From contig OY782041.1 of NCBI GenBank assembly GCA_963677595.1, positions 2,336,001 through 2,400,000 of the forward strand: a stretch of DNA of 64,000 bases, written 5' to 3'. The notes under the pieces are model-generated. The model worked only from the letters and a program-made list of their open reading frames with translations, did no database searches and had not been told where the DNA came from. Below, piece by piece: positions 33,427 through 46,948 of this stretch (position 1 is its first letter; each line of letters starts with the position of its first letter). This DNA comes from Spirochaetia bacterium. GTDB lineage: Bacteria > Spirochaetota > Spirochaetia > CAKZLE01. The position numbers and the translations under genes were made by a program.

Positions 33427-36216
33427 ATGAACCTTTCTGATTATCCAGGGACTCGATGGTATAAATGCGATTTACATCTTCATACACTTGCAAGCAAATG
33501 TTTCGAAGATGATGATTACTCTCCAGAGGCATTTATTGATGCTGTAAGTGCTAAGGGATTAGATTGTATCGCGATTACAGATCATAACACAGGGAAGAGC
33601 ATTGATGCTATAAAAGACGCTGCAAGAGATAAAAATATTACTGTCTTTCCTGGGGTTGAAATCACATGTACTGATGCAAAGGTCCATATTCTAGTACTGT
33701 TTAATCCTGAAAAGACAACACAGGATGTAGAGGATTTTCTTATAAGTCTAGGATTGGATAGGCAAAAATTTGGAGCACAGAATGCTCATATTGATAAGAC
33801 AATTACTAAGATAATGGAAATCATTGAGAGGAATGAGGCAATTGCTATACCCGCTCATATCGATGAATATAATGGATTGTCTTCTATAGCGGATGCCGTA
33901 AAGCAAGAATTATTTGGGAATGGGTTAATATCATCTGTACAGATAGTTCATTCAAGATTGATGAAAGAGAGCCTTTCAGGTGAAGAAGAAACCGAACTAA
34001 TAGATTATCTGAATGAATATTACGGAAAGACTGAGATAGGATTTCGTGATTTGAATACATGGCGTAGTTGTTCAAAATATATTAAATCAATAGCACAGCT
34101 AACTTTTTCAGATAATCCGAAAGAAACAAAATCATCAAAACACGGGCTCTGGGGGGTAGGTAATAAATATACGTGGATTAAAATGGGGAAATCCCCAGAT
34201 CTTGACAGCTTGAAGCAGGCATTCTTGGTTCCTGATCTTCGAGTACGAAATATGTTTTCTTGTCAATATAAGCCATATCAAGAACCAAAAACATGGATCG
34301 AAAGCATCTCAATAAACGATACATATATAACAGAATGTGGAAAGGGTTTTTCGCTATCCTTTAGCCCACAAATGAATACAATTATTGGGGGAAGAGGAAG
34401 CGGGAAATCGAGTATTTTGAGATTTATTCGTGGAATATTAAAAAAAACAAACGATCTTAGCTCTCTAACTGAAGTTGGTGAAGAGTTTCAGAATTTCTAT
34501 CAAAAGCAAGATTCACATCAGCATGGAGTATTTAATGGAAAATCCCAAATAACTCTAAATTTATTCAAGAACGGTATTTCTTATCAAATAGTAGCCGAAA
34601 ACATCACCGATGTTCATAATCAGAAAATCTCGATTTCGAAATTTGATTTTGAAACTAGAGAATATATTGAGATTGTGCAAGAAGAATTTTTATCTTTATT
34701 TGAAGTAAATATTTTTTCTCAGAAGCAAATCTACGAGATAGCAAACAATCCTAATGCCTTGTTAACCATTATAGATGAATCAATAGATGGTTTAGAAAGT
34801 AAAAAAGCCGAGATATCTCAACTCAAATCAGATTATTATGTTATTTCATCTGAAATAAGAAGTTATAAAGAAAAAATTAAAAATATAAAATTAATAGAGA
34901 GTGAAATTGATGAGATTGATTCAAGAATAAAATTGCTACAGAAAAGTGGCATTACTGATTTACTAGAACTAAGCCAACAGTATTCGAAAGAGAGCACTTA
35001 CCTGAGTAGATTTTTAACCAAAATTGATGAAGAAGTTAAGTCTTTTAATCATTTATTGGAAAAGTTGAAACTTGTTGTAGAGTTTGATGAGACTGTTTTA
35101 AAAACATCAAATAAAGATTCCATAATTGCTATAAAAGACAATCTTAATAACAGCACCTTTAAAATAATTGAAAGAATAACTTCGCTGAAGGATGAATATG
35201 TTGGAAATGTTGAAAAAGCAAAAGAAGCAATAAAAACATCTGGGTGGAGTACATTCAGACAATTGAATTTGGACCAAATTGAAATTAAGAAACGGGATTT
35301 GGGTGATCAAGCGATTAAAAATATTGAAGAGATTGGGGCCTTGGTTGAAGAAAAGCATAGTAAAGAGAAAGAGCGAGATGTTATAAGGAAATATGAGGCT
35401 GATATAAAACTTAAAGAAAAAGATCTAGAGATGAACTATTTAGAATATCTGAAAGCAATTAACGAGGTTTCTGAATGTCGTAAAGATTTTTTACGTGAAT
35501 CTGTTAGCGGTGATAATGTAAGAATTTCGGTTGCGCCTTTTCGAGATAAAAAAATGTTTGAAAAAGAGTTTAGGTCAATAATCAATAATGAGACTGCTTT
35601 TCACGATTCAATTGAAACTTTAATGCAAAAGTGTTTCGATGGTAGACTGCCCGATACTCTCAAAATCATCCATGAAGATTTACACCAACTTAGAGTAGGG
35701 GAAATTCCAGAAAATTACGATGGACGTTTTAAGAATTGTATTCAACGTCTTTCTCCTGATCAATTTGATAGTCTGATACTTCTTGTCCCAGATGACGAAA
35801 TAAAAGCCGAATATAAGCCCCCTAGGTCTAAAACATTTAAAAAGATTTCCTCAGCTTCCGCTGGCCAGAAAACTGCCACAATTCTGACTTTTTTGCTTTC
35901 CTTTGGTAATGAGCCTCTAATTTTAGATCAACCTGAGGATGATTTAGATAATCATCTAGTCTATGGGTTAATTGTTGACCGGCTTAAAGAATCAAAAGAA
36001 TCAAGACAAGTGATAGTAGTGACACACAATGCAAATATCCCGGTTAATGGTGATTCTGAATATATCATAGCAATGGATTCAGAATCGCTAAATCTTAATG
36101 TCTTACATGAGGGATCCATTGACGAGGATAATATAAAAAAGGAGATATGTGATGTCATGGAAGGTGGAGAGGATGCTTTCCGACTACGGTCAAAACGTTA
36201 TGAAATAAATAAATAA
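33427..36216 (+). CDS. PHP phosphoesterase-ABC ATPase fusion (TrlF/Ppl-like anti-phage protein)
   Basis: DLHLHT, ITDHN, PAH, FSD PHP motifs; GGRGSGKS, SAGQ, LDQPEDDLDN, VTHNANI. Confidence 0.88.
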   Translation: MNLSDYPGTRWYKCDLHLHTLASKCFEDDDYSPEAFIDAVSAKGLDCIAITDHNTGKSIDAIKDAARDKNITVFPGVEITCTDAKVHILVLFNPEKTTQDVEDFLISLGLDRQKFGAQNAHIDKTITKIMEIIERNEAIAIPAHIDEYNGLSSIADAVKQELFGNGLISSVQIVHSRLMKESLSGEEETELIDYLNEYYGKTEIGFRDLNTWRSCSKYIKSIAQLTFSDNPKETKSSKHGLWGVGNKYTWIKMGKSPDLDSLKQAFLVPDLRVRNMFSCQYKPYQEPKTWIESISINDTYITECGKGFSLSFSPQMNTIIGGRGSGKSSILRFIRGILKKTNDLSSLTEVGEEFQNFYQKQDSHQHGVFNGKSQITLNLFKNGISYQIVAENITDVHNQKISISKFDFETREYIEIVQEEFLSLFEVNIFSQKQIYEIANNPNALLTIIDESIDGLESKKAEISQLKSDYYVISSEIRSYKEKIKNIKLIESEIDEIDSRIKLLQKSGITDLLELSQQYSKESTYLSRFLTKIDEEVKSFNHLLEKLKLVVEFDETVLKTSNKDSIIAIKDNLNNSTFKIIERITSLKDEYVGNVEKAKEAIKTSGWSTFRQLNLDQIEIKKRDLGDQAIKNIEEIGALVEEKHSKEKERDVIRKYEADIKLKEKDLEMNYLEYLKAINEVSECRKDFLRESVSGDNVRISVAPFRDKKMFEKEFRSIINNETAFHDSIETLMQKCFDGRLPDTLKIIHEDLHQLRVGEIPENYDGRFKNCIQRLSPDQFDSLILLVPDDEIKAEYKPPRSKTFKKISSASAGQKTATILTFLLSFGNEPLILDQPEDDLDNHLVYGLIVDRLKESKESRQVIVVTHNANIPVNGDSEYIIAMDSESLNLNVLHEGSIDEDNIKKEICDVMEGGEDAFRLRSKRYEINK

Positions 36217-36233
36217 TTTTTAAATACATAAGA

Positions 36234-37211
36234 TTACTGCTTTGATTTATTGAAAATTTGAACAACGATTTGGTGTGATATATGCCACATCATTACTGGA
36301 GGTATGGCATTCCCAAGAGCCCTGTATTGTGAGAACTCTGATCCCACAAGTTTGAAGTTTTCTGGAAAAGATTGAATTCTGGAAACTTCTCGAGGCGTGA
36401 ATCTTCTGAATCTTCCTGATATTTTTAAAACGGGATCTGTGCTATTTAAAGAGACCTTTGCAAGGTGAGCACCTACAGTGTTGCAGGGCTGGGAAATGTC
36501 TTGGGCTCGACCTTTGTTCATCATTTTATTCGATTTCTGAAGCCCTAGAACAGCCCTCTCACTAAAATAATATTTTTCAGGAACTTCATTTTCATTAATA
36601 ATTACTTCATTTAATGGGATGGGTGAAATACTATTAGATAATGGCTTGAAATTAAAGTTTAAGTTTAAATCATCCCTTATTCCTATTATGAATACTCTCT
36701 CCCTTTTTTGAGGCACACCGAAATCTACAGAATTTAAAAGTTTCCAAGTAACATTATACCCGGCTTCTTCAAAATTTTTTATAATGAGTGGGAATGCTTT
36801 CTTTTTATTAGCTGACAATATACCTTTCACATTTTCAGCAATAAAGACTTTGGGGCGCTTCTCTTTGAGTATTCTCACCATCTCGAAAAATAATTTGCCC
36901 TTATCATCCTTATACCCTAGTCGGGGAGGGTTCTGGGCTACAATTGAAAAGGATTGGCAGGGGAATCCTCCCGTTAAAATGTCATGATCAGGGATTTCGG
37001 ATGCTTCGACATCTCTAATATCTTTTTGCTGACACTTTATTTGAAAGTTCTCATTAAAAATCTGACAGGCCGATTCTTCTATGTCATTCGCATACACGAT
37101 TTCAGTATTTAGCCGTGGGTATTTTGTATTAAGAAAAGTGAAACCACCTTCGATGCCTATGTCTGTTCCACCGCATCCGCTAAACAATGAGGCTACACGT
37201 ATTAGTTCCAT
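36234..37211 (-). CDS. DNA (cytosine-5)-methyltransferase M2
   Basis: LFSGCGG, GGFPCQ, ENV, QKRER, GNAIPP. Confidence 0.95.
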   Translation of the reverse strand: MELIRVASLFSGCGGTDIGIEGGFTFLNTKYPRLNTEIVYANDIEESACQIFNENFQIKCQQKDIRDVEASEIPDHDILTGGFPCQSFSIVAQNPPRLGYKDDKGKLFFEMVRILKEKRPKVFIAENVKGILSANKKKAFPLIIKNFEEAGYNVTWKLLNSVDFGVPQKRERVFIIGIRDDLNLNFNFKPLSNSISPIPLNEVIINENEVPEKYYFSERAVLGLQKSNKMMNKGRAQDISQPCNTVGAHLAKVSLNSTDPVLKISGRFRRFTPREVSRIQSFPENFKLVGSEFSQYRALGNAIPPVMMWHISHQIVVQIFNKSKQ

Positions 37212-38614
37212 GGTAGTAATTCCTGATATTCTCCGCTTGTTTCCGGATTAAAAGTGATTTCCATTCCCATTTGAGTGTTGAGTAACATATCAATTTTATC
37301 TTCTTTGTATAACCTGTCAGGATCCTGTAGAACATATAATTTTTTTGATTCTTTACTGATATATAGTCGATAGATAAAATATCTATCTGACAAAGTTTTT
37401 GCTGTATTCCACTCATTTGGTGTTAAATGGAATCTGTGAAAAGAAATGTTTTTACTGCTTATTGTAGTTTTTACTTCGATATACCTTTTTCGTGCATCAA
37501 GTTCAACCGATTGCAAATCATAACCAACTGCATATGAAGTGGGAATTAATTTAATAAGGTGTAGAAGGTCTTCTCTACCACCAATAGTAATTCTCTTACA
37601 TTCATGTCCGTATGCTAAGTTTTCACCTAAGTCTCCAATCTCCTTAGTGCGAACTTCTTGTGACTCGACTCTACTAAGAAGATCTTCATAGCTCTTCATC
37701 ATATTTTCATACTGTTCTTCACTGTCAGATATCAGGGCAAGAATATCTGTCATAAAGAAATCTTGGGATACCTTCTTATTAACAAATTCAAACCATGGAA
37801 CTTTTAATGATTTTATTTCTTCGAGATCTCCTGCATTATTTTCTATCTGGGTGTCATATCCTGAGAACCATGAAGGATTTGAAAGAAAGAAATCAATAGT
37901 TTTGCTCTCTAGAGAGTTGATGTAAAAATTACCATTATAAGTATTTAAAAGATTTGCGATTGACATATAGTCTAATATATCACCTGCATACCTGATGATA
38001 TCTCCAGTCCAATCCCATGAATAATTATGTTCCTTTGCATCTAATATTCTATCCACTGTTTCCGCATTAGACTCAAGGCCGGCAGTTACTCTTAAATCAT
38101 TGAAAATCAAATGTGTAGCTTCAGCCTTTGATAATCCAATATTTTTCCCCGTTGAAGCTTTAAGATCTGTTAAGATTTTTAATATGGTGTATGCAGGATG
38201 GAACTTGACACCTTTTTCCACAAACTTTTCAATTTCATGAGATTTTATATGTGCTCCCGGATATTGGAAGAAATATAGAAAAATTTTGAAGAACTGAACA
38301 AGATCCTGATTAGTTGCAAGATCTTGCGATCGTTGTGATGATCTGGTCAGATTATTGGGCTTATCCTCAATGTAAAAACCGAAAAGTGAAGATATTTCAG
38401 TTCTCCAGTTATTTATTGTTTTTTCGGATAAACCAATATTTCCCGGAAACCGTCTGATAGCCTCGTTTAGTTTTAATTTGAAATCGTCGCAAGATGCGGT
38501 GTCAATCCGTTTTATTTCCTCCGCGACAAAGATAAGGACGTTTTCAATATTATTTTTAAATCTGGGACGAACATGGTGGATACGGAAATAGTATTCAGCA
38601 GGAACATTATACAT
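37202..38614 (-). CDS. Putative type II restriction endonuclease with C-terminal DUF3883 PD-(D/E)xK domain
   Basis: IGDLGE...GYDLQS...YIEVKTT...LTPNEW; sandwiched between two MTases. Confidence 0.8.
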   Translation of the reverse strand: MYNVPAEYYFRIHHVRPRFKNNIENVLIFVAEEIKRIDTASCDDFKLKLNEAIRRFPGNIGLSEKTINNWRTEISSLFGFYIEDKPNNLTRSSQRSQDLATNQDLVQFFKIFLYFFQYPGAHIKSHEIEKFVEKGVKFHPAYTILKILTDLKASTGKNIGLSKAEATHLIFNDLRVTAGLESNAETVDRILDAKEHNYSWDWTGDIIRYAGDILDYMSIANLLNTYNGNFYINSLESKTIDFFLSNPSWFSGYDTQIENNAGDLEEIKSLKVPWFEFVNKKVSQDFFMTDILALISDSEEQYENMMKSYEDLLSRVESQEVRTKEIGDLGENLAYGHECKRITIGGREDLLHLIKLIPTSYAVGYDLQSVELDARKRYIEVKTTISSKNISFHRFHLTPNEWNTAKTLSDRYFIYRLYISKESKKLYVLQDPDRLYKEDKIDMLLNTQMGMEITFNPETSGEYQELLPWN

Positions 38615-39653
38615 TTAGCTCTCCCAATATACTCATTAATTCTTTTGCTATTACCCCAGCAAGGATCGGAGGAACAGCATTCCCTACTTGTGTTTCTTGC
38701 TCGGATTTGTTTCCAAGGAAGACAAACGAATCTGGAAAAGACTGAATCCGTGCTGCTTCCCTTACTGTAGGTACTCTGTTGAAAGCGTAATGAAAATGGT
38801 GCCTATGTCCAGTATCAATTGTGAAGCTTGGGAATTTGCTATTCAGCCTTGTCCATGCAATATTAACTTTCCTCGAATTTTTAAACTCCTCTGGAAGGTT
38901 TTTATAATTGCCACCATCAGGTACCAAATTTATTATCATTTTTGTTTTGTCTGTATGTTTGGTTGTTATATGATTATATATCCCATTTGACCCCTGTCTC
39001 ATTTTTTCTTGGTAGTTTGATTTTGGTTTTTCAGGATATCCTTCTTCTGGTTTGATATCAAATTCAGGTAAATCTGAAATAGCTTCTTCTGCACTAATAT
39101 GGTCAGTTAAATATTTATCAAGACGGTTAAAGTCGAATTTATGTGAGGATTTGAATCCGATAAGGATAAATCTTTTCCTATGTTGGGGCACACCATAATC
39201 TGAGGCTTTAAGAATTTTCCAATTTAGATGGTAGCCAATATTCTCGAAGTCAGTGAGAATAGAATTTAAAATTATGCCTTCACCCATAGATGCTATATTG
39301 GGCACATTCTCCATCATAAATACTGCTGGTTGTAGTACTTCTACAAATTTCAAAAACTGTTTGTATAATTTATTACGATGATCATCAACAATACGTTTCC
39401 CTGCAATTGAAAAACCTTGACAAGGGGGGCCGCCGATTATGACATCTACCTCCCGTCCTTTCATAATATCCAAGGGATCTATTTGTGCTAAATCAGCATT
39501 AATAGTAGTGGTTTCCTGATGGTTAAGTCTTAATGTATCTAATGCAATTTGACAATTGTCAATCGCATAATTTATCCTAAATCCAGCATTTTGGAATCCA
39601 AGAGACAATCCTCCACAACCTGAGAATAAGTCGAGTACCCTATATTTTTTCAC
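38607..39653 (-). CDS. DNA (cytosine-5)-methyltransferase M1
   Basis: DLFSGCGG, GGPPCQ, ENV, QHRKR, REAARIQSFPD, GNAVPP. Confidence 0.95.
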   Translation of the reverse strand: MKKYRVLDLFSGCGGLSLGFQNAGFRINYAIDNCQIALDTLRLNHQETTTINADLAQIDPLDIMKGREVDVIIGGPPCQGFSIAGKRIVDDHRNKLYKQFLKFVEVLQPAVFMMENVPNIASMGEGIILNSILTDFENIGYHLNWKILKASDYGVPQHRKRFILIGFKSSHKFDFNRLDKYLTDHISAEEAISDLPEFDIKPEEGYPEKPKSNYQEKMRQGSNGIYNHITTKHTDKTKMIINLVPDGGNYKNLPEEFKNSRKVNIAWTRLNSKFPSFTIDTGHRHHFHYAFNRVPTVREAARIQSFPDSFVFLGNKSEQETQVGNAVPPILAGVIAKELMSILGELNV

Positions 39654-40080
39654 CCTTAATTTCCTTTATCAGTTTCTCTAGATAATGAAGATCTTTAATT
39701 TCACATTCCCAAACAACTAGAACTTTAAACCCTAGTTTTTCTAGTTCTAAGTAGTTTTCCTCATCTCTGGTAATATTCCTGTTTATTTTATCTCTCCAAT
39801 AAGTCGTATTAGTCTTAGGGAGATGATTCTTCTTGCAATACTGATGCCCATGCCAAAAACATCCATTTACAAATACAACTGTTTTATAAAGGGATAAAAC
39901 AATATCTGGTTTCCCTGGAAGTATCCCATCATTGATAATTTTTTTTGAAACGTTGCCGTGCAATCGATATCTAAACCCTCTAGCAAATAGAAATTTTCGG
40001 ACCACCAATTCTGGTTTAGTATTTTTTGATCTGATTAGACTCATGTTCCAGCTGCGTTTTTCATTTGACAAATTATCCAC
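39640..40080 (-). CDS. vsr: Very short patch repair endonuclease
   Basis: RSWNMSLIRSKNTKPE, GKPD, FVNGCFWHGH, VWEC. Confidence 0.93.
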   Translation of the reverse strand: MDNLSNEKRSWNMSLIRSKNTKPELVVRKFLFARGFRYRLHGNVSKKIINDGILPGKPDIVLSLYKTVVFVNGCFWHGHQYCKKNHLPKTNTTYWRDKINRNITRDEENYLELEKLGFKVLVVWECEIKDLHYLEKLIKEIKGEKI

Positions 40081-40898: not shown

Positions 40899-41842
40899 AC
40901 GTAAGAGTATATCGAAATAGTCATATGTTGACTAGCGTATATGAGTGTCATTATTGATAAATCTGAGCAGAAAAAACATACATAAAAACCTCTTGAACAT
41001 GTAGGTATACGGATGTATAGTGACACACATGAAGACAATGAATGGAAGAAACAAACGCAAGATTGACTGGGTATTCCCGGATCTCCATTGGAAAAAAGTT
41101 GTTTATGCAGACCGATTTCGAATCCTACATATGGTAAGAAATTTCTGATCCCCTACAGACATTGTATCGTTCTCATTGATTGAAACCAACCTGGGGTACA
41201 ACCCCTGACAATACAGCTCTGCCCGGAGAGTCTTACGGGATTCCTGATTCTTATGTGGTACAAGGATCAAGGAAAATGAAGATTACCAATACTAAGGAGA
41301 AGAAGTGGCAATACGATTACAGACGACCAGAGACATTGCTGTCCAGGGAGTGAAGCTCCTGGTCTACGGTGCTGCCGGTGCCGGAAAGACCTCACTGGTG
41401 AGAACTCTGCCAAAACCGATTGTGCTATCAGCGGAAGGAGGACTGTTGTCCCTTGCAGATGAAGATATTCCGTTTATCGAGATCTCATCTGTATCTGATC
41501 TGCAGGATGCTTACAGCTGGCTGACCGGTGAAGAGGGGAGTGAATACCAGAGTATCTGTCTGGATTCCATCTCAGAGATAGCTGAGGTAGTGCTCAACTA
41601 TGAGAAGAAGCATGCCAAAGATCCCCGGCAGGCCTACGGAGCAATGCAGGAGCAGATCACCGATCTCATCCGTGCCTTCCGTGATATCCAGGGAAAGCAT
41701 GTCTATTTATTTGTCTGTAGATGTCAAGAGGTATAAACAAGAAAGTTTTGGCAATTCAAATAGACACAATTCTCCGAGACCTTAAAAATAAGGACTTGCG
41801 TGGGGAGGTGGTTAGTGATAGGCTAAAACCGTTAGATTGGCT

Positions 41843-43012
41843 TTAGCTGGTTATTGAGCTCTTATCGGAATTAATCTTGCAGGATCGGGTTCCGATGAGA
41901 GCTTCAAGTTTATAGTATTGCAGTTTCTTCAACAGATACTGTTCCCCGTCAGGCATCCGGTAGATATCACCGTTCTTCAGCAGAGCGAATCCGATAGAGA
42001 GCATCTTATTAGCAATGGCAACTGATGCTTTCTGACCAAGCTTCCGTCGGCTTTCAAGACGCTGCCAGTACCGAGTAAGAGAACAATCTCTCCTAAAGCT
42101 CTTGATCCCCCAAGCTCCCTGCATGATGTGCCTCCTGATCGGCATACACCCGTGACGAGAGACCCCAAGATGCTTATCGACCGTCCCGGATTGATCCTTC
42201 TTCGGGATGAGACCGATATAGTTCCTCAGTTGGTTAGCAGAAGAGAATCGGTCCCCATTACCGAGGAAGGCAATGAGCGTTACAGCCGTGATGTCTCCGA
42301 TACCAGGAATCGAGAGCCAGGAAAGAGCTTCTCGTGGGTGAGCGAGAATGATCTCCTTGAGCTTCTCATGAATACGTTCCATCTGCGACTCCAATGATTC
42401 AAGCTCTTCGAGCAGGAGCCCTGCACTGAATAGAGCTATCTCCTCGGTGAGCAGGGTCTCCACCCAGTCCCGTCGCTTGCGAGGATCCTTCAGATCCGAT
42501 TTCTTCAGGTCAGGGAACCCCATTCCCGTGAATACCGCATGAAGCTTGTTGATGACCTTCGTACGATACTGTGAATAGGCGATGTGAAGCTTGACTACTG
42601 AGCGCTCAGCAGATTCCTGTTCAGTCGGGATAGGAACCAGTACCCAGTTCTCCGGGTGGGCATCCCGTGCATACTTAGCCAATTTTGCAGCATCTTGCCG
42701 ATCTGACTTGCAGATCGACTCGAAGATGATATGCAGTTTCATGGGGTTGAGTACATACACGTCTGCTTCGGTGTGCTTCAGCAGATACCGTGCGAGGTTG
42801 AAGGAAGAGGTCCCTCCCTCCATGAAGATCGCATCTCCTGCTTTGAACCGTTCAGCGAGTCGCTGACGTCCTTGAGCATTCATCTTCTCGTTGAAGAAGT
42901 GATTCTTCATGAACCCTTCTTCTGCTAGTAGCATACACCCAACCAGAGTCTTCTTGGAAAGATCCAAGCCGATGATCCTGGTTGCCGTCAATCGTAAAGG
43001 TCTGTCTATCAT
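41843..43012 (-). CDS. IS110 DEDD recombinase/transposase
   Basis: IIGLDLSK, MEG, KSDRQDA, SIPGIG, YIGLIPKKDQSG. Confidence 0.95.
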   Translation of the reverse strand: MIDRPLRLTATRIIGLDLSKKTLVGCMLLAEEGFMKNHFFNEKMNAQGRQRLAERFKAGDAIFMEGGTSSFNLARYLLKHTEADVYVLNPMKLHIIFESICKSDRQDAAKLAKYARDAHPENWVLVPIPTEQESAERSVVKLHIAYSQYRTKVINKLHAVFTGMGFPDLKKSDLKDPRKRRDWVETLLTEEIALFSAGLLLEELESLESQMERIHEKLKEIILAHPREALSWLSIPGIGDITAVTLIAFLGNGDRFSSANQLRNYIGLIPKKDQSGTVDKHLGVSRHGCMPIRRHIMQGAWGIKSFRRDCSLTRYWQRLESRRKLGQKASVAIANKMLSIGFALLKNGDIYRMPDGEQYLLKKLQYYKLEALIGTRSCKINSDKSSITS

Positions 43013-43029
43013 GGCAGCCTCCTCAAAAT

Positions 43030-43270
43030 AAAATTAACGGATAGTTGGGAAGCTTTATGACAGGAAGTGCGTAGATGCCCTTCATTTTTATTATTGAGAT
43101 CATTCCCGGGGAGAATTCCCCGGGAAGTCTCCAAGTAGTCTTCGATGACCGGTCAGTGTATCTTTCTCATTGAGGTATGTCTGAAAGTCCAGCATCCATC
43201 ACAATAGATCATTACACGATCACCGGTTCCCATTCTCCGTCAAGAATAGGATAGCATCTATGACTTCTCA
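43030..43270 (-). ncRNA. Putative IS110 bridge RNA
   Basis: Four short segments match the target and donor junctions and flank internal hairpins; boundaries approximate. Confidence 0.72.
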
Positions 43271-43556
43271 ACTACAGTCATACTACTTTCTCAGCAAAGC
43301 TCGAGAAGACCCAGGACGAAATGGGAAGGATTCTCTATTCACCCTCGATGCCGGGGAACAAGACCGGACAGCAGCTTCCTTACTTTTTCGATGAGGTTCT
43401 CGCTTTGAGAGTAGAGAAGGATTCTGACGGAGTGACCCAGCGGGCACTCATGTGTGATGCCGATGGGATCTGGACGGCGAAGGACCGCTCCGGGAAGTTA
43501 GCACCCTGGGAGAGTCCTGACCTGGGAATGATCATCTCCAAGATCGGAGGTGCAGC

Positions 43557-43946
43557 ATGACCGATATCGAGAAAGCCTGCCAGGCCTGGGATGAGGCGAA
43601 GCTGGCAGAGAAAGCTGCAGTCGAGCAGCGGCGAGAGATTGAGGATTGGCTCAGTGGACAGATCAAAGTCCCTGAAAGCTTTGAAGGAACGAAATTAGTT
43701 CCTGCCGGTCCTTTCAAGATCAAGGTCACCGGACGGATGACTAGGAAAGTTGATGAGGTGGAGCTGCAGCGAATTGCTGCTATTCATGGAACAACCGATC
43801 AGCTGCCGAAGCTTTTCCGCTGGAAGGCCGAGGTGAGTAAGAGTGTATGGGATAAAACCGATCCCGAGGTGACAACCCCGCTGCTTGCAGCGATCACCAC
43901 GAAACCCGGGAGATTGAGTTTTACCATCGTCCGGGAAGAAGCATAA
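43557..43946 (+). CDS. Phage hypothetical protein of the recombination module
   Basis: 129 aa with ATGA overlap; LFRWK and AITTKPG motifs. Confidence 0.75.
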   Translation: MTDIEKACQAWDEAKLAEKAAVEQRREIEDWLSGQIKVPESFEGTKLVPAGPFKIKVTGRMTRKVDEVELQRIAAIHGTTDQLPKLFRWKAEVSKSVWDKTDPEVTTPLLAAITTKPGRLSFTIVREEA

Positions 43947-45562: not shown

Positions 45563-46948
45563 TTGAATGAGTTACATTTATTTGCAGGGGCAGGGGGAGG
45601 AATCCTCGGTGGCCACTTGCTCGGTCATAGAACAGTGTGTGCAGTTGAAATTGAATCCTTCCCAAAGGAGGTGCTGTTGCAGAGGCAGCGTGATGGAGTC
45701 CTTCCTTGGTTCCCTATCTGGGATGATATCAGGACGTTTGACGGAACCCCATGGAGAGACTGCGTCGACATTGTTTGCGGAGGATTCCCCTGCCAGGATA
45801 TTAGTGCTGCAGGGAAAGGCAAAGGGATTTCAGGTGAAAGGTCGGGGCTCTGGTCGGAAATGGCGAGGGTGGTCAGCGAAGTTAGACCAAAGTATGTCTT
45901 TGTGGAAAATTCGCCCTTGCTTACCGGACGAGGACTTGACCGGGTCCTCATGGATCTGGCCGGCCTGGGGTATGATGCAAGATGGGGAGTGTTGGGTGCA
46001 GATGATGCCGGTGCTCCTCACCGAAGGAAAAGAATCTGGATCTTCGCGTATGATCCCGACCCCAACATGTTCAGATACCAGAACAGCCAACATGAAAAGC
46101 TCTCAAACTTCAGAGAACACCATGCACAGTGTAACATTAGCGAGATTGGTGGAGAAAGAGCCTTGGAAGATATGGCCTACTCCAACGAGTACCGATGCAA
46201 CTGCCGGGGCAGTATTGAATCAGAACACGAAGCTGATCAGGTTGAAATCGGGGCGATTAAGGAAGGTTTCGAACAACGGGGTTGCAGGAAGCATTGGTCT
46301 GGCGAGAACGGTTGCACTATGGCCGACTCCGGACGCAAGCATGGGGACGAGAGGATTGGAGAAGGACTGGAAGCCGGTACGTCCAAGTGGGCATCATGCT
46401 CAGTACACGATCAATCAGGCAGTGAACGATGTAGAAACCTTTTGGCCGACTCCTACCGCAAGCGAGGATGTAGCAGGAACCCCGGAGGGGAAGATGCAAT
46501 GGATGCTGACCCAAGCAGCGAAGAGTGGATGCAAGACTCGGAAGGAATATCTTGGTGGGAAATCGACCCCGCGGAATTACCCGACCCCGACAACTTCAGA
46601 TCGTTTCAATGTAGAACCTCAGCACGACAAGGGGAGAAAGCTTCTGAGGATGGAAGCTCATCCAGAGGGAACCGAAAATCTGACTGCTGCTCAAGCAAAC
46701 CAGATGAATGGCCAGTTGAACCCGGATTGGGTGGAATGGCTGATGGAATGGCCGATTGGGTGGACCTCGCTGGAACCGCTTTCGGGGGAAAAATACCAAG
46801 GGTGGGTACAGGCATCGATAAACGTGTTAAAAGGCTTAAGGCGATAGGAAACGGTCAGGTCCCTGTGGTAGCAGCAATGGCATTTATTATCCTCTCTCAA
46901 GGAATCATTCCTGATGAAGAGTCTTTATCGATGGAGAACGTATGCTGA
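45563..46948 (+). CDS. Phage C5 DNA methyltransferase, alpha frame (motifs I-VIII and X)
   Basis: LFAGAGG, GGFPCQD, ENSP, HRRKRIW, RLKAIGNGQVP; low-conservation middle region. Confidence 0.9.
   Translation: MNELHLFAGAGGGILGGHLLGHRTVCAVEIESFPKEVLLQRQRDGVLPWFPIWDDIRTFDGTPWRDCVDIVCGGFPCQDISAAGKGKGISGERSGLWSEMARVVSEVRPKYVFVENSPLLTGRGLDRVLMDLAGLGYDARWGVLGADDAGAPHRRKRIWIFAYDPDPNMFRYQNSQHEKLSNFREHHAQCNISEIGGERALEDMAYSNEYRCNCRGSIESEHEADQVEIGAIKEGFEQRGCRKHWSGENGCTMADSGRKHGDERIGEGLEAGTSKWASCSVHDQSGSERCRNLLADSYRKRGCSRNPGGEDAMDADPSSEEWMQDSEGISWWEIDPAELPDPDNFRSFQCRTSARQGEKASEDGSSSRGNRKSDCCSSKPDEWPVEPGLGGMADGMADWVDLAGTAFGGKIPRVGTGIDKRVKRLKAIGNGQVPVVAAMAFIILSQGIIPDEESLSMENVC
45567..46847 (+). CDS. Overlapping +1 frame polypeptide (TRD repeats plus motif IX), MTase beta subunit
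   Basis: 426-codon open frame with five PTP repeats and GQLNPDWVEWLMEWPIGWT. Confidence 0.75.
   Translation: MSYIYLQGQGEESSVATCSVIEQCVQLKLNPSQRRCCCRGSVMESFLGSLSGMISGRLTEPHGETASTLFAEDSPARILVLQGKAKGFQVKGRGSGRKWRGWSAKLDQSMSLWKIRPCLPDEDLTGSSWIWPAWGMMQDGECWVQMMPVLLTEGKESGSSRMIPTPTCSDTRTANMKSSQTSENTMHSVTLARLVEKEPWKIWPTPTSTDATAGAVLNQNTKLIRLKSGRLRKVSNNGVAGSIGLARTVALWPTPDASMGTRGLEKDWKPVRPSGHHAQYTINQAVNDVETFWPTPTASEDVAGTPEGKMQWMLTQAAKSGCKTRKEYLGGKSTPRNYPTPTTSDRFNVEPQHDKGRKLLRMEAHPEGTENLTAAQANQMNGQLNPDWVEWLMEWPIGWTSLEPLSGEKYQGWVQASINVLKGLRR

Follow-up and report, generated by a model that had tools for sequence, protein, structure and literature searches.

An ISLin1-like IS110 element from a spirochaete with a probable upstream bridge RNA and a TT core, and a possible bias of its relatives towards terminator-like hairpins

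The window analysed here, a stretch of 64,000 nucleotides from a Spirochaetia bacterium, contains an IS110-family insertion sequence (IS) of 1581 bp, including one core. Its upstream non-coding end probably specifies a bridge RNA, predicted to direct recombination between a 14-bp donor and a 14-bp target at a TT core. The full reading, to which we assign a probability of about 90%, describes an IS110 neighbor of ISLin1 with an upstream bridge RNA, 14-bp donor and target sites, a TT core, insertion at predicted terminators in many of its relatives, and drift of the guide set shared by four of its copies. On the model of IS621, the element would circularize, the joining of its ends would build a promoter that transcribes both RNA and recombinase, and a recombinase tetramer would bind both loops, open both DNAs and exchange strands via its DEDD/Ser site. 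Relative to the gene the geometry would be inverted, in the order of IS1111-type elements, so that the left donor falls in the left end. Many relatives appear to be inserted where the stem of a predicted intrinsic terminator meets its T tract, a position at which the T-rich right end would leave termination intact, and the guides of copies A-D may have drifted to a sequence that also matches coding regions. Throughout, G000 is the genome holding the window, copy A is the window copy and L0xx labels are individual relative loci; LT, RT, LD and RD stand for left and right target and donor, and LTG, RTG, LDG and RDG for the matching guides.

The element splits a Sak4-like ssDNA-annealing gene (AAA_24) of a prophage in which repressor, terminase and portal genes are present. 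The 5' part of this gene (41305..41705, +; PF13479) covers positions 35-167 of the phrog_124 profile, and the 3' part (43289..43560, +) covers positions 169-260, contiguous with the first; the reading frame runs on across the reconstructed empty site. At the right end of the IS, downstream of its gene, the 7-nt LT (41699..41705, +) is followed by the core TT of the LT-RD junction (41706..41707, +), by RD (41708..41712, +), which together with the core forms a T-rich tract on the plus strand, and by the right sub-terminal inverted repeat (41712..41728, +). At the left end, the left sub-terminal inverted repeat (43264..43280, −), which matches its counterpart at 13/17 positions, is followed by LD (43280..43286, +), the core TT of the LD-RT junction (43287..43288, +) and, beyond the IS, RT (43289..43293, +). 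Base variation at the junctions of relatives places both copies of the core, the first also by a filled/empty pair described below. The five copies and the Sak4 frame present an insertion into a specific, oriented target with a short core and no separate duplication.

The sub-terminal repeats flank the donor, and the two ends of an element covary: 9-mer identity between cognate left and right repeats is 7.93 of 9, against 5.25 for permuted pairs (n=43). Joined in silico, the ends of the window copy form the predicted promoter TTGACA-17-TAGTAT, with its −35 box (41727-41722, −) inside the right sub-terminal repeat and its −10 box (43285-43280, −) inside LD. A promoter at the end-to-end junction is a feature of bridge RNA systems, found here in silico only. 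In 43/43 junctions the −10 box has the form TAnnnT, at a spacing of 17 bp from the −35 box; the −35 box served as the anchor for finding right ends and is not independent evidence for the promoter. No end-to-end circle joint was seen in the contigs of four runs, a search that is silent on absence because contigs drop rare forms.

The gene within the element (41843..43012, −) encodes an IS110-family DEDD recombinase of 389 aa with domains PF01548 and PF02371, which scores 198 bits against NF033542 (cut-off 140). Residues D17, E65, D104, D107 and S275 are conserved, and in an alignment S275 falls on the serine motif conserved in IS621. Its homologues carry source labels that are mostly Sphaerochaeta, Pleomorphochaeta or Spirochaetales, so a spirochaete host is likely.

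The predicted bridge RNA (43065..43260, −; ends approximate) consists of a 5' hairpin, a target-binding loop and a donor-binding loop, each predicted loop with guides for both strands in the order LTG-RTG-LDG-RDG. The preliminary description had read four guide matches on the recombinase strand, at positions 43208-43203, 43169-43163, 43139-43133 and 43092-43087, and all four are found there; the extent of the first required revision, as the LTG spans 9 nt (43203..43211, −; 7 plus 2 core), defined by covariation, rather than 6. The RTG (43163..43169, −; 5 plus 2 core) fits this site at 7/7, including 5/5 positions of RT, and the LDG (43133..43141, −; 7 plus 2 core) fits at 8/9, while the RDG (43087..43092, −; 4 plus 2 core) is nearly constant among relatives. 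LT matches at 4/7, and with the core the window site pairs its LTG at 6/9 only, the weakest fit of the five copies. Within the 254-nt body of the left end, ordered, core-anchored exact matches add up to 26 nt, and among 5000 dinucleotide shuffles, allowed either polarity and either strand, the best reached 23 and none reached 26 (0/5000).

Each guide pair flanks a hairpin, as first described, and among 18 selected relatives base changes in the helices are compensatory. Across the five helices, 95.4% of cells are paired, with 77 double changes against 27 in shuffled alignments, and slid controls are paired at 40-52%; the 18 sequences were selected from the closer relatives and the structure was derived from the same alignment, which favours the structure in this comparison. 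The bridge RNA region has a fold z of −4.6, and an Rfam search of the upstream end gave no family at gathering score.

A wider comparison drew loci from genome contigs (4), metagenomes (23), G000 (6), a sample of the phylum, two handles and the family of genome G407, where 36/258 genomes match and loci were returned for 30/46 places. Relatives were found in 2/401 genomes of the phylum sample, G000 included, in 0/5 other genomes of the family of G000 itself, and in none of 100 pattern matches from viral contigs. Their recombinases are 39-100% identical. Fifty-seven left ends were aligned; 13 left ends were placed by hand, and the right end of L054 was excluded by hand. Loci L008, L014, L015, L034 and L036-L040 were dropped as duplicates before counting, as were L004, which lacks its 5' part, and L042, at 31% identity and with other ends. 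Three loci with a missing left end (L022, L024 and L046) were left out of the guide counts and kept in the hairpin tests.

Within the conserved scaffold of the 57 aligned left ends, the guide columns are hypervariable, and the guides covary with both target and donor, as is characteristic of bridge RNA systems. Cognate LTGs pair at 6.87 against 5.49 for permuted ones (n=39; 0/20000 permutations) when a register of −1 to +2, chosen after viewing the data, is allowed, and at 5.47 against 4.56 in a fixed register. RTGs pair at 6.53 against 5.52 (n=53; 0/20000) and fit at least 6/7 positions in 49/53 loci. LDGs pair at 4.63 against 3.69 (n=55; 0/20000). The covariation persists when each distinct guide is represented by one element (n=34 for LTG, 41 for RTG and 15 for LDG); the relatives in all these counts are kin and hence not independent. 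The flanks of the four other copies in G000 and of up to 53 relatives follow their own guides, the comparison that had been proposed as a check of the assignment. A control with the polarity of IS621 gave no signal (3.39 against 3.36 permuted; 8088/20000), and on this null result that polarity was rejected.

The fit is not uniform. The LTG scores only 5-5.5 of 9 in 6/39 loci, and its best register differs from 0 in 24/39, partly through ambiguity of the anchor. Such partial matches are compatible with half-match insertions like those reported for IS621 (10.64898/2026.08.31.748434), or with drift of guides after insertion. Since the matches are A/T-rich and span 6-9 nt, and since many equally good sites in the genome are empty, they might be thought chance coincidences in an element that picks its sites by protein-DNA contacts alone. 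Neither the composition-keeping shuffle nor the permutation tests reproduce the signal, the guide columns are hypervariable within a conserved scaffold, and copy E differs in both target guides with a protein 97% identical, all of which makes this explanation very improbable.

The donor side permits another reading, a seekRNA-type use in which only the target loop would act as a guide. The protein would then recognise the ends through their long sub-terminal repeats, with weak or vestigial matches in the donor loop. The covarying long repeats and the IS1111-type order suit it, as does a report that short target-matching RNAs of 70-100 nt are sufficient for ISEc11 (PMC11187229). So does the LDG, which matches at only about 4.6 of 7 and whose core-facing bases are not conserved, the two positions facing the core being TT in only 22/57 loci. 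This reading is nevertheless unlikely: the LDG varies in step with the left end from one subclade to another, also over the 15 distinct pairs, in L023 and L060 an altered right end is accompanied by an altered RDG, and compensatory pairs are kept in the donor-loop helices. A bridge RNA that guides both donor and target is preferred, and the natural covariation of its guides suggests that the recombinase is programmable.

The core itself had been given as TTT. It is the dinucleotide TT, at 41706-7 and 43287-8, the third T being a donor base on one side and a target base on the other. Among relatives, in the orientation of the recombinase strand, 11/53 left junctions differ at the first A, one further junction has TA, and the base past the last A varies in 10/39 right junctions; the three-base core was rejected on this variation. 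The A/T composition attributed to the core stands, at a length of 2 nt.

Five full copies, A-E, are present in G000 at 96.5-100% DNA identity. Copies A-D share their target guides, and sites A, B and C match the corresponding 14-bp ideal at 11, 12 and 12 of 14 positions; site D matches at 12/14 only with a 1-nt slip and at 6 in register. G000 also contains unoccupied sites for these guides, 2 at 13/14, 36 at 12/14 and 290 at 11/14, and targeting in this genome is loose. Copy E has four changes in the first target guide and four in the second, and its guides fit its own flanks at 7/9 (two G-U or G-T wobbles counted half) and 7/7. Among the other insertions, copy C (L030) interrupts a gene of the pyridoxamine 5'-phosphate oxidase family near its start (PF12900), and copy B (L029) interrupts, also near the start, a short frame for which a Pfam search gave no match.

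Two further loci carry guides of their own. Copy F, a 181-bp left-end fragment (G000 C1:253783-253963) upstream of an ORF of ~300 aa, is cut inside the donor-loop hairpin. Its target guides form a third set, and the fragment might provide a target loop in trans. Copy G, or L033 (G000 C1:2615555-2616706), a 46% relative, has a left end and guides of its own; its RTG fits at 7/7 and its LDG fits the element's end. Another ORF adjoins it, and a search for its right end found none.

A filled/empty pair comes from the contigs of run X1: at a position near C1:2,896,263 that carries no insertion in G000, both IS junctions are present, and a further contig spans the empty form of the same site. The pair places the break within a T run, and the junctions contain an extra T compared with what conservative insertion into the G000 allele would produce. 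They fit the guides of copy E (5/7 and 4/5) better than those of copies A-D (2/7 and 1/5); the contigs do not link the filled site to any guide set. Two haplotypes occur at the filled site, and G000 may itself derive from X1. The A-D RTG also fits a second X1 junction at 7/7, the flank of which is absent from G000. The filled site (L080:1139-1791) either falls inside a poorly supported ORF that precedes a minimal nucleotidyltransferase gene (PF01909) or lies directly upstream of that gene.

In many relatives, an oligo-A RTG and a GC-rich LTG go together with a hairpin directly beside the core. A loose fold test, run first, found hairpins at 23/41 sites against 11.4 expected; under a strict rule, set only after that test, a terminator-like hairpin adjoins the core in 16/42 sites (38%). 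The same rule is satisfied in 71/1326 far windows, 1/135 far A-runs, 1/33 left flanks, 125/1500 genomic A4 sites and 129/972 genomic A6 sites (13%, in G000), a background of 1-13% over the five controls. Two of the 16 matches are not terminators, namely site A, within a gene, and L046, which is tRNA-like, and the strict rule misses known-looking long hairpins such as that of L001. Because the core and the right donor are T-rich, insertion leaves the T count unchanged: the 8 nt after the stem on the terminator strand contain a mean of 6.07 T both before insertion, in the reconstructed empty site, and after it (n=14). Convergent genes lie at 18/38 right flanks and 17/30 left flanks, with no overall difference; divided by hairpin they are found at 13/21 sites with one and 5/17 without, a comparison not used as support.

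This link to terminators could be a by-product, in which an AA core and an A-rich RTG simply favour A-runs, frequent in terminators, with neither selection for safe sites nor reading of the hairpin. In keeping with this, more than a tenth of genomic A6 runs in G000 already adjoin such a hairpin, 26/42 sites have none by the strict rule, and copies A and C sit in genes. The observed frequency exceeds all five controls, the hairpin is confined almost entirely to one side of the core, and many different GC-rich LTGs each fit a stem arm, so that the by-product has a real chance of being correct but is somewhat doubtful. Some DDE elements, such as IS4, also favour terminators. A bolder proposal, tentative and just short of an even chance, is that guides in this spirochaete TT-core clade have been reprogrammed within terminator space: elements would insert at Rho-independent stem/U-tract boundaries, possibly reading the hairpin, and their T-rich donor end would serve as a new U-tract, keeping the terminator and blocking antisense read-through in a safe harbour. 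Stem-loop gating or a read-through-linked role for the hairpins is plausible, because a target stem-loop has been reported to gate ISPpu10 (10.64898/2026.03.19.712850) and excision of IS621 to be driven by read-through transcription (PMC13626964).

Two individual flanks may be mentioned here. At the right flanks of L006 and L007, what seems to be the same convergent gene, presumably efp by its C-terminal sequence, is followed by a hairpin that is occupied by a different element in each case, which suggests a reused site. At the right flank of L046, the insertion lies 3 nt from the 3' end of the tRNA-like sequence, on the opposite strand.

A comparison with named elements places the clade nearest to ISLin1 of Leptospira interrogans (28% identity over 360 aa, E 2e-47), the best named match among plasmids. 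In a tree of 19 rows, with long branches and only 8 outside references, the clade is sister to ISLin1 at 97/95, apart from ISEc11 and ISShdy1, the latter of which we take to be an IS1111-labelled element. ISLin1, which the source data of PMC11187229 assign to the IS110 family, shares the upstream RNA with the same scaffold motifs, the guide polarity, the sub-terminal repeats and the junction promoter, and its RTG covaries between L072 and L073. It differs in a recombinase of 357 aa rather than 389 aa, in a core of GA/AG (TC/CT on the other strand; AGA at both junctions) rather than AA on the recombinase strand, and in flanks formed by a repeated palindromic element rather than by terminators (L072 and L073). 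The palindromic units around the ISLin1 of L072 match ISLin1 guides, and this copy is in tandem, with the end of another copy just upstream (L072:270-690 and 1760-1900).

IS621 and ISCro4 (IS622) share with the present element the domain pair, the catalytic residues, an upstream RNA with a 5' hairpin and two loops, the order LTG-RTG-LDG-RDG, 14-bp sites (7+2+5) and the junction promoter (PMC11208160; 10.1101/2025.05.14.653916). Their proteins are distant (HMM E 4e-20 and 9e-23). IS621 has a CT core in place of TT/AA, sub-terminal repeats of 2-3 bp in place of about 9-17 bp, a recombinase of 315-330 aa in place of 389 aa, and the bottom-strand guide first relative to the gene, the opposite of the order here; an Extended Data legend (Fig. 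8 of PMC11208160) presents TT only as an engineered IS621 core. In IS621 the LTG is described as pairing with the bottom strand and the RTG with the top strand (PMC11208160), and the LT-RD junction forms the left half (PMC13626964). In IS1111-type elements, the top-strand complement is described as preceding the bottom-strand match (PMC11187229). The polarity swap relative to IS621 noted in the preliminary description is real and not new; it is the published IS1111-type order and is also found in ISLin1. Viewed from the RNA, the geometry would be that of IS621 (7+2+5, LTG-RTG-LDG-RDG), with the gene-plus-RNA cassette inverted between the ends.

The IS1111 family (ISEc11, ISPa11 and ISKpn4) has in common with the clade the top-strand complement first, long sub-terminal repeats and a junction promoter (PMC11187229). 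It differs in a long non-coding region downstream of the gene, where the RNA here lies upstream in a 274-nt left end, although a few members, such as ISMtsp17, are listed with an upstream region (PMC11187229). The repeats are 12 bp apart at the junction here, as opposed to extensions of 7 (or 6) + 3 bp; they are near-perfect over 11-13 bp in IS1111, against 13/17 here and a mean of 7.9 of 9 in relatives; and the proteins are of 330-350 aa against 389 aa. ISPpu10 is likewise an IS110 element whose targets have a stem-loop beside the guide match, and it uses one conserved REP target, for which the role of the stem-loop was tested (10.64898/2026.03.19.712850). The clade described here uses many guides against many unrelated terminator-like hairpins, whose structural role is hypothetical. 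Since several defining features of IS621 and of IS1111 are lacking, the element is filed under the broad IS110 family only, as ISLin1-like. The mechanism, natural reprogramming and guide polarity are already published; titles and openings of abstracts, with subscription papers outside their scope, gave no prior description of a natural TT-core clade with an upstream RNA, long repeats and a terminator bias.

Programmable tools for genome writing are being sought among bridge recombinases, of which the characterised ones described have a CT core. What this clade adds is a TT-core scaffold of natural origin, a readable four-guide layout, dozens of natural guide/target pairs, and two guide sets on 97% identical enzymes within one genome. 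It also breaks the usual coupling of upstream RNA, short repeats and IS621 order. This favours a third architecture, centred on ISLin1, in which guide order depends on how the cassette is oriented. Should the terminator bias hold, it would show how harmless sites can be reached by RNA guidance even when no conserved host repeat is available.

The neighbourhood of the element in the window contains further ORFs of interest. Adjoining the prophage repressor, at 36234-40080, are two ORFs that resemble C5 methylases by their sequence motifs, a 470-aa endonuclease-like ORF and a Vsr-like ORF, and upstream of the methylase-like ORFs lies a PHP plus SMC/AAA fusion (33427-36216); together they possibly form a defence cluster. 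On the other side of the element, at 45563-46948, a C5 methylase ORF of 461 aa is overlapped almost fully by a 426-aa ORF (45567-46847) in another frame of the same strand.
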